From positions 389-64,388 of the IMG/VR virus record IMGVR_UViG_3300030433_001577: a DNA stretch of 64,000 nt. The stretch is one strand, 5' to 3'. The translations under genes were made by a program, and so were the position numbers. Numbering within the stretch: the first letter of the stretch is position 1; every line of letters begins with the position of its first letter. Positions 3,637-11,374 of the stretch are shown piece by piece. The notes under the pieces were generated by a model that was given only the letters and a program-made list of their open reading frames with translations, was not told where the DNA came from and did not search any database. Source of the stretch: a virus. Its lineage: Duplodnaviria > Caudoviricetes.

Positions 3637-3711
3637 GGGCATATGGTGTAATGGATAGCATTTTGGCCTTCTAAGCCGAAGATACGGGTTCGATTCCTGT
3701 TATGCCCGCCA
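3637..3711 (+). tRNA. tRNA-Arg, anticodon UCU, encoded CCA
   Basis: Acceptor GGGCATA/TATGCCC; anticodon stem TTGGC/GCCGA with loop CT-TCT-AA; T arm ACGGG-TTCGATT-CCTGT; discriminator G then CCA. Confidence 0.93.
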
Positions 3712-6982: not shown

Positions 6983-8397
6983 TGACAGCACAATCTAGAA
7001 ACTCAGGTTACAGAACGGCTACAAGTAATACAACCTTTACCTATACTAGTTCTTATGGTAGAATGCGAGAAGGTAGAAATTCTGTCTACAATATCTCTCA
7101 ACCTAATAATAGGTCAGGGACACAAGATGATGGAACGTTGGCTACTAAGCACGTTTCAAAAATTTTGAATGGAACACTAAAGGCTTATAGGTGGATTACA
7201 TTTACAAAGCCCGTTGGAACGCAAAGACCAACTCCCCCTTCTTTGAAGATGGACTTGAAAATGGGAAGTAGTTATCTACATTTCTTTAGAGTTGATAACA
7301 AAACATACTGCAATGGTTTCCCTATCAAGTCATACATGACAGGACCAATTTTCTTGGGCTGTTTTAGCAAACTAGCGTCATGGAATCAAGATAAAGTAGA
7401 TGAATTTGTCTACAATTCTATGGATTCTGTGCCAGAAGTTTTGGCCGCTATGACCAACAATTTGAAGTTCAATTATATGCTAAATGGTAGATGGGAAACT
7501 TCCTTGTTAAAGGTCAGTTTGATTAGCCGTAAGGAAGTTGCCGTTCAATTGTATGAAGGGTGTTGGATGCCCATGAAGCAAACAGCATTCAGAAGTTTGT
7601 TCAATGCAGGTGCGGGTAGAAATAACAAATATTCTACCATGAGTCCTGAGGAACTATATTTCAAATGCACGGGTGAACATTTAACAGATGTGCAAATTAA
7701 ATATATGTATGCATATTTGGACCAAAATACTTCAACAAAATTGGTTACAAAAAGAAGCCTAGAATTGTTGGATGGACTGCCAGAAATGTTCCCCACTAGA
7801 GTTAAGAAGTTTGACTTCGATAGCGATAAAAACGGTTACAGATACAACACGGTAATGTTTGTAAAAGGTAATCAATTAGATTGGATTGTATCTGGTAGCG
7901 TGAATTATGAAAAGGTCAGGACAGGCAGACAAAATGTTTCGAGTCAAGTAGTCATTGACATTAGAAATTATGACTTGCAGGTTACAATACCTTCTGATGA
8001 TGGGATTGGTTCTATCAATAACTATACAATCAAGAGTTGGTCTAACATGATGTCTCATTGCGTTGCTATGAAAAATAACCCAAACTGGAGATTCGATTTA
8101 ATTCCCAAGCAAAATTTTTATGGCATGTCCGCCCTCAATCTAAGACGTAACACTGGTGCGATTTATTATTGTAAAGAAAGCAAACAAGCCTTTGTTTCCT
8201 TAAGCGGAATCTGTATCGACCAATCGAATACTGATGTATCTATTGGCGACCAATTTGCCTCAAGGGTTATGGCGTTTCTAAATGACACGGCTAGTTTTAA
8301 CCGTGTTTCAACTATGAGAAGTTACAGTAAAATTAAACCAGCATTTAGAGTTGATTTCGATGCCCTGTCTGAATTGCAAATCCCGACTTTTGAGTAG
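6982..8397 (+). CDS. Large hypothetical protein heading the TFB-E1-JAB gene run
   Basis: 471-aa ORF; GGTGA RBS; no family recognised. Confidence 0.75.
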   Translation: MTAQSRNSGYRTATSNTTFTYTSSYGRMREGRNSVYNISQPNNRSGTQDDGTLATKHVSKILNGTLKAYRWITFTKPVGTQRPTPPSLKMDLKMGSSYLHFFRVDNKTYCNGFPIKSYMTGPIFLGCFSKLASWNQDKVDEFVYNSMDSVPEVLAAMTNNLKFNYMLNGRWETSLLKVSLISRKEVAVQLYEGCWMPMKQTAFRSLFNAGAGRNNKYSTMSPEELYFKCTGEHLTDVQIKYMYAYLDQNTSTKLVTKRSLELLDGLPEMFPTRVKKFDFDSDKNGYRYNTVMFVKGNQLDWIVSGSVNYEKVRTGRQNVSSQVVIDIRNYDLQVTIPSDDGIGSINNYTIKSWSNMMSHCVAMKNNPNWRFDLIPKQNFYGMSALNLRRNTGAIYYCKESKQAFVSLSGICIDQSNTDVSIGDQFASRVMAFLNDTASFNRVSTMRSYSKIKPAFRVDFDALSELQIPTFE

Positions 8398-8974
8398 AGT
8401 AAAAGAGGTCTTTGTTTGTGGGGAGTGTGGTCTTGTGAATGTGTCTAAAATTGTCTCCTTTTCTGAAAGTAGAGATATTGACAGGGAATTCATAGACCTC
8501 ACATTATTGTATAGGGAATGGGATTTACCTCATCTTGATGAGGCGAAGAAGTATATGCGTTCAGCATATGTGTATATTCATAGTGGAAGATTTTCAATGG
8601 CAGAAATGTCGGCAACAGTAGCACATATCCATATGCGTAATTTGGATAGGCCGACTAATCTTTACAAACATTGTAAATATCTAGGAATAAGAACGACGAA
8701 AGTAAAAAGAATGATTGATAGGTTGAAGGATTTTTGGGATGTTGATTGGCACTACAACATCGAGGAAGCCCACAGACTTTGCGATACTTTAGAAGTAGAT
8801 TTTGACGTAGAAGTTATGCAGAAAGTTGCGGATGAAATGGTATTAACGCCATCAATAATAGCCGCAGTAGTCTACATGACTAATGATATGTCGCATAGAA
8901 AGGTCGCAAATCTGTTCAACCTAAGTGCTACAAATGTGCTAAACAAAAAGAAAAAATTGGAGGAAATAATATGA
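8360..8974 (+). CDS. tfb: Archaeal transcription factor B (TFIIB)-like protein
   Basis: N-terminal Zn ribbon CLNC...CGECG; cyclin-repeat-like core; C-terminal PSIIAAVVY...SHRKVANLFNLSATNV matching the TFB second repeat/HTH. Confidence 0.75.
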   Translation: MPCLNCKSRLLSRVKEVFVCGECGLVNVSKIVSFSESRDIDREFIDLTLLYREWDLPHLDEAKKYMRSAYVYIHSGRFSMAEMSATVAHIHMRNLDRPTNLYKHCKYLGIRTTKVKRMIDRLKDFWDVDWHYNIEEAHRLCDTLEVDFDVEVMQKVADEMVLTPSIIAAVVYMTNDMSHRKVANLFNLSATNVLNKKKKLEEII

Positions 8975-9534
8975 AGAAAATAATGGTAATAGGCGCAGGA
9001 GGAATTGGAAGTTTCCTTATTCCCCTGCTTGACCGAGTGAACGAATATGAAATCAATGTATGGGATGATGACATTGTTGAGAAAAAGAACCTGTCATATC
9101 AGGATTTTTATGAAGACGATGTGGGAAAGCATAAGACAGATGTGATGTCTTATCGCTACCGTAATGTAAAAAGTCATCCTTACCGTGTCCTAACAAAGAA
9201 ACAACTTACGGGATATGATTTGGTTATCTGTTGTGTAGATAATCTTGAACTGCGACGGCTACTTTATCTTGTAGATACTGAGAAAATTAAATGGTTGGAC
9301 TTGAGAGCGCAAGCCCGTAATGGACTACTAATTAGTTTTCAAGAGAACCCTGATAACTTTGCCATATTGACAAATGGGCCAGATGGTAATTTTAGTTGTC
9401 AAGGCGATGAATGGGATAGAAGCAACGCAGGTGTTCACTTCACCCACGTTGCAATTGCAGGAATGGGCGCACAATGGGTTCAAAGATATTTTGCAGGAGA
9501 TAAAACACATACTCATGTGAGGTTATCAATATGA
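8971..9534 (+). CDS. ThiF/MoeB/UbaA-family E1-like adenylating enzyme
   Basis: IMVIGAGGIGS (GxGxxG), WDDDIVEKKNLSYQ, VGKHK, DLVICCVDN; candidate catalytic Cys in FSCQG. Confidence 0.88.
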   Translation: MKKIMVIGAGGIGSFLIPLLDRVNEYEINVWDDDIVEKKNLSYQDFYEDDVGKHKTDVMSYRYRNVKSHPYRVLTKKQLTGYDLVICCVDNLELRRLLYLVDTEKIKWLDLRAQARNGLLISFQENPDNFAILTNGPDGNFSCQGDEWDRSNAGVHFTHVAIAGMGAQWVQRYFAGDKTHTHVRLSI

Positions 9535-9638
9535 AAGAGAAGAGATTTTGTAAAAAGTGTGGGGCAGGACTAGCCATGCGAATTAGTGAAGAACGATGTC
9601 CAAAATGTAAAAGGAGAAAGAAATATGAAAACAATTAG
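9531..9638 (+). CDS. 35-aa CxxC...CxxC Zn-ribbon peptide between E1 and JAB (not in ORF track)
   Basis: MKEKRFCKKCGAGLAMRISEERCPKCKRRKKYENN; ATGA overlap with the E1 stop. Confidence 0.5.
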   Translation: MKEKRFCKKCGAGLAMRISEERCPKCKRRKKYENN

Positions 9639-10326
9639 AATTGGAAAGGTAGAAGAATATGCGGATGACCTTTTGTTAAACCAAAGGTTGGATGAGATAG
9701 AACAAGATGAAGATGTGGTGATTGAAGAAATCTTTGTTGAAGGCGGAATTATTTACGCTGATGCTGTTGATGTTGTTCAATACACTATCACGGAATTTAA
9801 CGACGATAAGACATATCATGGTTCAGAAATGGGATTATTCTTCAAAGGTAATGAACCCAAAAGTGGGCCACTAAATGTTCGCTATACTGACATTGAACCT
9901 GAGGTCTGGCAAAAGGAGATAAAGGAAGTCTGGAGACATCTTTCTTTTAAGGGAGAAGATGACCCATCAGATGAGAGATTTATTGAAGCAATTTGGAATG
10001 CTTCTAAGAACATATTGCCTGGATTAGAAATATCAGTAATTATTGACCGTGATGGAAAATTGTTCATGAATAGCGGTTCGCCTGGATATGTAGACTATGG
10101 TGGAGTTATGGTTGCAGGTATGAAAATTCCTATTAAATGTTGGATTCATACCCATCCATTTGGTTCAGCCTTTTGGTCTGGAACAGATACCCATACTTTG
10201 CGTAATTGGCGACCTATCTTAGACCAAGCAATTGTTATTGGAAATCAGGAGTATTTGAAATGGGACAAATTGGAAGACAAGGAAGTAATGACGAAGGTAG
10301 TGTGGACAGAACAATTCAAGTTGTGA
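9625..10326 (+). CDS. JAB/MPN+ (JAMM) metallo-isopeptidase with acidic N-terminal domain
   Basis: Exact JAMM signature E(LEIS)...HTH-PFGSAFW-S-GT-D (HxHx7Sx2D); ATG at 9625 follows GGAGA RBS. Confidence 0.88.
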   Translation: MKTIRIGKVEEYADDLLLNQRLDEIEQDEDVVIEEIFVEGGIIYADAVDVVQYTITEFNDDKTYHGSEMGLFFKGNEPKSGPLNVRYTDIEPEVWQKEIKEVWRHLSFKGEDDPSDERFIEAIWNASKNILPGLEISVIIDRDGKLFMNSGSPGYVDYGGVMVAGMKIPIKCWIHTHPFGSAFWSGTDTHTLRNWRPILDQAIVIGNQEYLKWDKLEDKEVMTKVVWTEQFKL

Positions 10327-10364
10327 GATTCCCCACTACTGAACATAGGGTGATAAGTTGCCCT

Positions 10365-10679
10365 ATGGAATGTAATTCTGGTTGCAAAATTTGCACGGAT
10401 GGAAGTTATGAAGTTGAAGGAGAGTTATGGGTTAATATCCAACACCCCCATGTAATACAATACATACGGGATAATTTGATGTTTGTTTCTTTGGAATACA
10501 ATCGTCTTTTTGGAACGTCTTATGAATTTGTAAGCGAGGGAATGTTGAAGTTAGGATGGACTACATTTAGGGTTGATAGCCCTGTGGGTTCTATGTGGAT
10601 TTGTGTTAATTTAGTAGGAAATGTAAGACACTTTTATAGCGAAGGAGGATTAAAAAAATGGTTAGCATTAGAGAAGTAA
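10365..10679 (+). CDS. Hypothetical protein with N-terminal CxxxCxxC
   Basis: ATG at 10365 in frame with track ORF 10206..10679; GGGTGA RBS 11 nt upstream. Confidence 0.5.
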   Translation: MECNSGCKICTDGSYEVEGELWVNIQHPHVIQYIRDNLMFVSLEYNRLFGTSYEFVSEGMLKLGWTTFRVDSPVGSMWICVNLVGNVRHFYSEGGLKKWLALEK

Positions 10680-10948
10680 GAAGAATGTGGAAAGGAAAAA
10701 GAGGAATAACGGAAGACGCTGTTCATGAATTTAAGGACAGGGCTGAAATGTTGTTGGAAGCACTGGTAAGATTGGCAAACTATGAAGCCAATAAGCGAGG
10801 CCCAACATCAAGATTGAGAACACAAGATGTTCAATTGGCCTATTTGTCCATAATGGATTTGACAAATAATGTAAGGTCGAATAGAACAGATGCCGACGAT
10901 AATACCTCGTTGAACGATATTGAATTTGGAGAGTGGAATAGTGAGTAG
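10658..10948 (+). CDS. Archaeal-type histone-fold protein with acidic C-terminal tail
   Basis: IREVRRMWK-GKRGITEDAVHEF...ANYEANKRGPTSRLRTQDVQLA aligns by eye with HMf-type IGRIIK-AERVSDDA...AKHAGRKTIKAEDIELA (L1 R-x-T/S, L2 R-x-x-x-x-D). Confidence 0.7.
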   Translation: MVSIREVRRMWKGKRGITEDAVHEFKDRAEMLLEALVRLANYEANKRGPTSRLRTQDVQLAYLSIMDLTNNVRSNRTDADDNTSLNDIEFGEWNSE

Positions 10949-11180
10949 AATTAGAACTGTAACTCATGGTGAGTATGAAGTTTTAAATGTCATCCTAGAT
11001 TCTTTGGCAGTTGCTGAAAATCTGGAACGACTAAAATTTGACATGGTGCCAAGTAACGATGAAGTTGCTGAAAAGCGTTTTACACAAAGCGTAGCATCTA
11101 TCGGAACTTTCCTTACAAATATGATGGAAAGACGCAAACATAGGTTGCCTAAAAACCATCCAGATTATCGGGTGAAATGA
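10920..11180 (+). CDS. Hypothetical protein
   Basis: ORF track. Confidence 0.55.
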   Translation: MNLESGIVSRIRTVTHGEYEVLNVILDSLAVAENLERLKFDMVPSNDEVAEKRFTQSVASIGTFLTNMMERRKHRLPKNHPDYRVK

Positions 11181-11374
11181 TGAAAGAAAAAGAACAAATA
11201 CATGAGATGCTTTTAGAAGCGATTGAAAAGAAAAAACAATGGTTCGATTTGTGGAACTCTAGGGTAATGAATACTCAGCAAAATGCTGAATGCCTTAGAA
11301 ATTATACTGCACTTCGAGGAGTTGTCAAAACCTTGCGATGGGTTTTGGATGAAGTAGAAAATCCGTTGGAGTAG
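11177..11374 (+). CDS. Hypothetical protein
   Basis: ORF track; GGGTGA RBS. Confidence 0.6.
   Translation: MMKEKEQIHEMLLEAIEKKKQWFDLWNSRVMNTQQNAECLRNYTALRGVVKTLRWVLDEVENPLE

Follow-up and report, generated by a model that had tools for sequence, protein, structure and literature searches.

A 64,000-nucleotide stretch of the IMG/VR virus record IMGVR_UViG_3300030433_001577 (positions 389 to 64,388), hereafter called the window, carries a gene for a small protein of 96 amino acids (aa) that very probably has a histone fold. The source record comprises 64,388 bp and is estimated to be 71% complete, so the window represents nearly all of it. From the sequence alone, the protein had been described as a virus-encoded archaeal-type histone with an acidic tail. 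Fold, size and tail stood up in our analysis, but membership of the HMf family by sequence did not: the protein falls below the Pfam cut-offs, lacks the RxTxxxxD motif and has no cellular relatives, so that its sequence alone would not make it a true histone of the HMf type. The reading that we favour, with moderate confidence, is that of a virus-specific protein with a histone fold that binds DNA as a homodimer, belongs to the replication module and has a tail that would regulate DNA binding or recruit a partner.

The gene and its start region have the following features.

10658..10948, plus strand: histone-fold protein gene, with ATG at 10658 and stop codon TAG at 10946-10948, encoding 96 aa (open reading frame [ORF] list and sequence).

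10641..10648, plus strand: Shine-Dalgarno-like element GAAGGAGG (GGAGG site), 9 nt 5' of the ATG and within the upstream gene for a 139-aa protein.

10658..10679, plus strand: 22-nt overlap with the end of this upstream gene (...KKWLALEK, then stop), read in two frames and covering codons 1-7 (MVSIREV).

The ORF was recovered exactly as originally claimed, on the plus strand from ATG to TAG. A GGAG-type element 5' of the ATG, an intact frame and the MVSIR start were found in all 21 IMG/VR loci of the gene, and in each of the 21 its start overlapped the gene for the 139-aa protein by 13-22 nt. Because of the 22-nt overlap in the window, the two genes look translationally coupled. The invariance of MVSIR(E) in the family is probably due in part to the dual-coding constraint of this overlap and not to protein function.

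A word-indexed protein search of metagenomes returned seven relatives of the 96-aa protein, and an exhaustive representative search added nine more distant ones, down to 39% identity. Scanning IMG/VR, we obtained 21 magrovirus-like viral contigs that encode the gene in a syntenic position and in single copy. The pairwise ratio of non-synonymous to synonymous substitution rates (dN/dS) was 0.12-0.32 for codons 1-67 and looser for the acidic tail than for this core. These results show that the histone-fold gene is real, conserved and under purifying selection in magrovirus-like viruses.

The fold was assessed with an AlphaFold2 monomer model built on an alignment of 14 sequences. Helices were placed at residues 4-11, 19-47 and 55 to ~70 (lengths 8, 29 and at least 13), so that the three-helix pattern noticed in the original prediction was confirmed in the model. 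The predicted local distance difference test score (pLDDT) was 76.8 on average, 89-93 for residues 21-60 and 82 for residues 61-70. The predicted structure has the order α1-L1-α2-L2-α3 with a long central helix, over ~65 residues, and its elements are located as follows.

10658..10858, plus strand: histone-fold core, residues 1-67 (AlphaFold2, Foldseek, VIA, hhalign).

10667-10690, plus strand: α1, residues 4-11 (AlphaFold2).

10712-10798, plus strand: α2, residues 19-47 (AlphaFold2).

10820-10858, plus strand: α3, residues 55-67 (AlphaFold2).

Within the core, plus strand: loops L1 (residues 12-18) and L2 (residues 48-54) (AlphaFold2).

When the model was compared with the PDB by Foldseek, all top matches among those listed were histone-fold chains, and minimal archaeal histones fitted best. 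With HMfB (1a7w) the alignment had a TMt of 0.84 and a root-mean-square deviation (rmsd) of 1.3 Å over 66 columns; alignment by VIA to 5t5k and 1a7w gave Z 7.3-7.5 and rmsd 1.4 Å over 64-65 residues. In BFVD, which holds predicted viral structures, the top matches were giant-virus histones together with three small unnamed marine virus proteins.

The sequence evidence for a histone was weak alone but consistent. Pfam Histone (PF00125) matched the 96-aa protein with E 0.14 and 12.8 bits (cut-off 26.4), while PF00808 (CBFD_NFYB_HMF) gave no match in the source record at E ≤ 1. Scanning the family member by member against Pfam yielded PF00125 in 7 of 22 members and PF00808 in 2 of 22, in every case below threshold, and no other family recurred meaningfully. 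The best member (L018) aligned to model positions 6-64 of the 65 in PF00808 with 16.4 bits (cut-off 21.4). A plain phmmer search of the 96-aa protein against the PDB sequences gave no match; with the family profile there were 21 sub-threshold matches, 13 of them to histones, which aligned along the entire fold. Among the full-length histone matches, HmvA scored best (E 0.041, positions 6-61). By hhalign, the family profile matched eight genuine Methanocaldococcus histones, all PF00808, with 71% probability and E 3.7e-5 over columns 1-60, and in the ESM Atlas feature search the named neighbours of the 96-aa protein were all histone-fold families. Fold prediction had been proposed as a check of the original claim; the AlphaFold2 monomer showed a histone fold, and the profile-profile comparison pointed to one without being decisive. 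Homology of the protein to cellular histones is likely, albeit very distant. Across the window, the best match to the Methanocaldococcus histone profile was an insignificant one (E 0.065), to a 69-aa helical ORF at 450-659 on the plus strand (MSKLREYERLKKRILELATEKAREE...).

Beyond the core, the protein has two further features.

10859..10945, plus strand: acidic C-terminal tail, residues 68-96, net charge -5, pLDDT ~50.

10922..10939, plus strand: tail-end motif E-F-G-E-W-N, residues 89-94, with the family consensus [DE][FW]G[DE]WN (alignments).

An acidic tail of ~25 aa had been predicted, and it was found to span 29 aa (residues 68-96) with a net charge of -5, compared with a net charge of +3 and an isoelectric point (pI) of 9.7 for core residues 1-67. 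The window tail was modelled as a helix, at pLDDT ~50 only. Across the 22 members the tails were always acidic (net -2 to -16, length 4-41 aa), and the cores were mostly basic (pI 8-10). The linker part of the tail varied in sequence and length; [DE][FW]G[DE]WN was conserved and was entirely absent from two short-tailed members only. In a regular-expression scan of the window and all 21 loci, the motif was confined to the histone-fold family. Of all features, this motif, which formed no part of the original prediction, is most likely the one that is most informative about function.

Several histone chaperones and a herpesvirus protein cover the surface by which histone-fold dimers bind DNA with a disordered acidic stretch that has one or two aromatic anchors (PMC6101569; PMC9477414). 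The viral tail may work like such cap-anchor peptides (APLF, YL1, Spt16 and Anp32E; BKRF4 of Epstein-Barr virus) and like the tails of single-stranded DNA-binding proteins (SSBs), in which a disordered acidic stretch with aromatic residues at its end occupies a basic DNA-binding surface or recruits partners. It differs from them in that there is no sequence homology and in being attached to the histone fold itself. In SSBs of phages and bacteria, the acidic aromatic C-terminus has two effects: it inhibits the protein's own DNA binding, and it brings in partners from the replisome.

The loop elements depart from those of canonical archaeal histones. An L1 element was present, although it reads R15-G-I-T18, that is R-x-x-T and not the R-x-T that had been claimed. 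The claimed L2 element, R52-x4-D57, was likewise present, but it is not the canonical RxTxxxxD, and position 57 is D, H or N across the family. The family motif in L2 is [ST]-R-[LVIM]-x-x-x-[DHN], represented in the window by T50-S51-R52-L53-R54-T55-Q56-D57. In the alignment to the Methanocaldococcus histones, the strand residues of L1 were matched by I17-T18 of the viral protein and the strand residue of L2 by L53. Invariant in the family were M1, V2, S3, R5, R28 and R52, and nearly so I4, E24, A44, L60 and A61; the invariant residue of L2 is thus R52, as opposed to the Thr of the canonical R-K-T. Basic residues occur at the positions where histones contact DNA, namely R5, R8/R9 and K12 (α1), R15 (L1) and R52/R54 (L2). 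In HMfB, L46 and H49 are what we take to be the tetramer contacts, and the equivalents in the viral protein are E43 and K46. Because of these two residues, the formation of canonical tetramers or hypernucleosomes by the viral protein appears doubtful.

Several findings weigh against a DNA-binding histone-fold protein. No sequence search reached a curated threshold, and in the PDB sequence search matches to the AAA+ lid of RuvBL2 (E 0.013-0.03) stood slightly above any histone. RxTxxxxD is absent, and L2 has a one-residue insertion relative to the RKT of the Methanocaldococcus histones. VIA Z values of 7-7.5 are in a range often reached by chance in small helical models. Moreover, the full-length 96-aa protein is acidic (pI 5.5), and four members have neutral or acidic cores.

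A rival explanation is that the protein is no relative of histones at all. It would then be a three-helix protein of generic type, or else a helix-strand-helix fragment akin to AAA+ lids, its likeness to histones being convergent or an artefact of prediction. The sub-threshold sequence matches, the RuvBL2 lid segments as best PDB sequence matches, the structural Z of ~7 and the small model alignment all speak for this explanation. We nevertheless consider it highly unlikely. The RuvBL2 match is limited to profile positions 36-83 (second half), whereas histones match over the whole fold; the top structural matches listed are histone folds without exception, at an rmsd of 1.3-1.4 Å to minimal archaeal histones; and independent methods (per-member Pfam, ESM Atlas and BFVD) agree. 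An identity as a RuvBL2-like AAA+ lid domain was also rejected as such, the match being partial only and the 96-aa protein having no ATPase domain.

The distribution of the family was determined with two collections. No relative of the histone-fold protein was found in GTDB (one genome each of 185,579 prokaryotic species), and a tblastn search of INPHARED (GenBank phage records) gave no match. Because relatives are missing from both, the family is, as far as these sequence collections reach, virus-specific, and nothing pointed to its recent acquisition from a host that has been sequenced. Each genome has one copy of the gene, and no second histone-fold gene that could supply a heterodimer partner was detected in the window or in two 100%-complete relatives (92 and 91 kb). 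Given a single copy and no other histone-fold candidate, a homodimer is the economical assumption. A search for longer or fused forms produced nothing besides P0053 (386 aa, on a 2286-bp ENA contig). This protein shares its first ~40 residues with an L021-type member and then diverges, and we rejected it as a fused form; it is probably an assembly or frameshift chimera.

We propose that the viral histone-fold protein self-pairs as a handshake dimer, as the presence of one such gene per genome suggests. The dimer would bind double-stranded DNA through R5, R8/R9 and K12 at the N-terminus of α1, R15 in L1 and the invariant R52 in L2, and it would bend or coat the DNA without building HMf-type hypernucleosomes. 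The disordered acidic tail, anchored by F90 and W93, could fold back on the basic ridge and thereby act as an in-cis chaperone or autoinhibitor; alternatively, F90 and W93 could serve to dock the protein onto a partner. The protein would have its place inside the cell, on viral (or host) DNA that is being replicated or transcribed, and not in the capsid, because its gene sits in the replication and early module and is coupled to that of a zinc-knuckle protein, the 139-aa protein. The module around the gene includes ribonucleotide reductase (RNR), TFB-like, ThiF, Cpn60, RFC and PolB genes. Tailed viruses package their DNA via terminase, and on this basis viral chromatin within the terminase-packaged capsid is unlikely. 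A more specific form of the proposal is a self-chaperoned magrovirus histone, in which FGxW anchors keep the acidic tail over the DNA-binding ridge up to the point of release on viral DNA or of transfer to a replisome or zinc-knuckle partner. We put this forward tentatively, as an idea that may well prove wrong.

The tail could also be directed at the host. As an antagonist of host chromatin, the protein would poison host histones by forming heterodimers with them, or its tail would bind the DNA-binding face of host histones or of other host DNA-binding proteins and strip them off DNA. Acidic peptides with aromatic anchors are known to bind histone-fold dimers and to displace DNA, including one in a herpesvirus protein (PMC6101569; PMC9477414), and it fits such a role that the tail-end motif is conserved although the linker varies and that the family occurs in viruses only. 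However, the histones reported to be exclusive to the Poseidoniales, the presumed host order, are acidic single-chain quadruplets with a four-fold repeat of the histone fold (PMC13260811). In quadruplets a singlet should find no half-site to pair with, so that poisoning through heterodimers is less likely, and they would not be an obvious target for an acidic tail. In addition, the viral core keeps a basic ridge of its own under purifying selection. We judge an antagonist of host chromatin to be quite unlikely. The poisoning of host histones had been raised in the original prediction along with viral chromatin and histone tagging by a ubiquitin-like (Ubl) protein, and nothing in our results specifically supports any of the three.

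The genomic surroundings bear on two other explanations. The window derives from a magrovirus-like tailed archaeal virus, and its gene set matches that of the group B magroviruses, which have tails and for which Marine Group II (Poseidoniales) archaea are the assigned hosts (PMC5434244). Encoded in the window are a class II RNR, a chaperonin of the Cpn60 type, a clamp loader resembling RFC, a family-B DNA polymerase, a PD-(D/E)XK nuclease, a capsid protein of the SU10/HK97 type and a tail tube protein. The histone-fold gene is embedded in a conserved order of RNR ... 471-aa protein, TFB-like, ThiF, JAB-like, 139-aa protein, histone-fold gene ... 277-aa protein, chaperonin, RFC, with conservation counted in all loci long enough to show that order. 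The nearest genes and a tRNA gene are located as follows.

8351-8974, plus strand: TFB-like gene (Zn_Ribbon_TF, E 0.011, sub-threshold).

8971..9534, plus strand: ThiF/E1-like gene (Pfam PF00899, E 1.7e-16).

9586..10326, plus strand: JAB-like gene (Pfam PF14464, Prok-JAB, E 0.027, below cut-off).

10260..10679, plus strand: upstream gene for the 139-aa protein, with an invariant CPxC...CxxC(xGxG) zinc knuckle and an α/β domain (alignment of the family).

10920..11180, plus strand: downstream small conserved gene for 79-86 aa, overlapping the 3' end of the histone-fold gene; without a family in Pfam or PHROGs.

3637-3711, plus strand: tRNA-Arg(TCT), its CCA being encoded; group B magroviruses are likewise reported to have tRNAs.

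A pattern derived from this tRNA-Arg had no exact match among the 185,579 species genomes. The histone-fold gene had been placed two genes downstream of the JAB gene, and this is indeed its position: the JAB-like gene (9586-10326) is followed by the gene for the 139-aa protein (10260-10679) and then by the histone-fold gene. Among the TFB-like, ThiF and JAB-like assignments, only ThiF is a solid Pfam match.

The TFB-like gene, situated four genes before the histone-fold gene in the conserved block, would fit a role of the protein not in coating DNA but as a histone-fold transcription adaptor like NC2, NF-Y or TAF, the dimer working with this viral factor or with host TBP/RNA polymerase. The acidic-aromatic tail would then be an activation-like protein-contact peptide that redirects transcription to viral genes; acidic tails with bulky aromatics may indeed resemble protein-binding peptides, and the structural and feature neighbours of the protein include TAF, NF-Y and NC2 folds. 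We consider a transcription adaptor rather unlikely, since the TFB assignment is itself sub-threshold, no second histone-fold partner was found in the window or the two complete relatives, and the basic residues are placed where histones contact DNA. To our knowledge, archaeal histone-fold transcription cofactors of the NC2/NF-Y/TAF kind have not been established.

The order of ThiF, JAB, zinc-knuckle gene and histone-fold gene was kept in 21 of 21 loci and, with ThiF as a solid match, could be taken to indicate that the protein serves the ThiF/JAB ubiquitin-like system next to it as a dedicated substrate or adaptor, as in the histone Ubl-tagging mentioned above. Collinearity extends all the way from RNR to RFC, though, and the adjacency of ThiF, JAB and histone is not specific because this entire block of >10 kb is syntenic. 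Furthermore, no lysine is invariant in the histone-fold family, the JAB match is sub-threshold, and no E2-like protein was found, the 139-aa neighbour being without an invariant catalytic-type Cys outside its zinc knuckle. Taken together, these findings render a role in Ubl-tagging extremely unlikely.

The 139-aa protein, the gene of which is coupled to the histone-fold gene in 21 of 21 loci, has a DnaJ-like zinc knuckle and a C-terminal β-β-β-β-α unit. Its AlphaFold2 model had a pLDDT of 67, and no coherent fold or family emerged from the comparisons (best Foldseek TM < 0.3, best VIA Z 5.0). Low-probability Foldseek rows for PUR-alpha and MRP1/2 (Whirly/PC4-like) are a lead only. An E2-like identity was rejected on the basis of the Cys residues in the family alignment, and a PC4-like identity because Pfam gives no PC4 match. 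On the other side of the histone-fold gene, four loci (L013, L015, L016 and L017) have ~460 nt between it and the next conserved gene, and the extra stretch directly 3' of it in this subgroup is probably one more small gene. PHROGs contained no family for the histone-fold gene or its neighbours, except for a 65-aa ORF at 11177-11374 that matched a PHROG of unknown function (E 0.0075).

Among cellular histones, HMfA and HMfB (1a7w, 1b67, 5t5k; PF00808) share with the viral protein the fold of ~66 residues, the helix lengths, the lack of an N-terminal tail and the basic positions in α1 and the loops, and the model superposes on them at 1.3-1.4 Å. The viral protein differs in its identity of only ~20%, in the 29-aa acidic tail and in being found in viruses only. 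MJ1647/HmvA of the Methanococcales (8bdk) is of similar length (~96-97 aa) and likewise consists of a histone fold followed by a C-terminal extension. There the extension, a conserved helix, brings about tetramerisation and the bridging of DNA (PMC11390915), whereas the viral extension is acidic, of variable length and predicted with low confidence, and only its last six residues are conserved.

Histone-fold proteins of Caudoviricetes have been obtained by metagenomic mining and sorted into HMf-like (MFVHFP) and tail-to-tail (VTTHFP) clusters (hLife 2025, PMC13681535). The 'phage histones' of Schwab et al. 2024 (PMC11390915) have an α3 of 3-4 residues, an α2 that is 4-5 residues shorter and a C-terminal tetramerisation helix. 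Like all of these, the family described here is small and encoded by tailed viruses from IMG/VR and marine metagenomes, and some of the published proteins also have C-terminal additions. The conserved basic positions 5, 9, 29 and 48 of VTTHFP are close to R5, R9, R28 and R47 of the viral protein. With 29 residues in α2 and at least 13 in α3, however, the protein does not show the truncation that defines the α3-truncated phage histones and VTTHFP. The published surveys used hidden Markov model cut-offs of 1e-5 and 1e-3, and with standard histone profiles the present family lies below these. The family may coincide with one of the clusters of these surveys. In a limited look at the magrovirus literature (including PMC5434244), we found no mention of histones. 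The three BFVD proteins noted above (A0A516M0E3, 89 aa; A0A516MG14, 79 aa; A0A516LUS5, 64 aa) have histone-like predicted folds, with TMt 0.65-0.79 and 13-20% identity. They suggest that other viruses may carry further unrecognised histone-fold families.

As viral histone-fold proteins in Caudoviricetes are already published, what is new here is the conserved [DE][FW]G[DE]WN tail end, which, together with the virus-only distribution, is the most notable feature of the family. For a long time, virus-encoded histones were reportedly regarded as a peculiarity of the giant viruses that infect eukaryotes, and the histone-fold proteins of tailed viruses of archaea and bacteria are said to have been catalogued only in 2024-2025. 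We know of no role established for any tailed-virus histone-fold protein. In the surface ocean, magroviruses rank with the most abundant viruses of archaea. Their hosts are uncultured, and the quadruplet histones reported for the host lineage are unusual in their own right. The family is beneath the detection limits of standard histone profiles and yet fixed in these widespread marine archaeal viruses. Its practical value will be modest until the protein is expressed. Its compact architecture of histone fold, acidic linker and six-residue aromatic end could reveal how a minimal histone keeps its DNA binding under control with no separate chaperones. If the histone is self-chaperoned, it would form virus-specific chromatin on the replicating viral genome, distinct from the quadruplet-histone chromatin of the host. 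If the protein binds DNA, it would provide a handle on how magroviruses organise or protect their replicating genomes.

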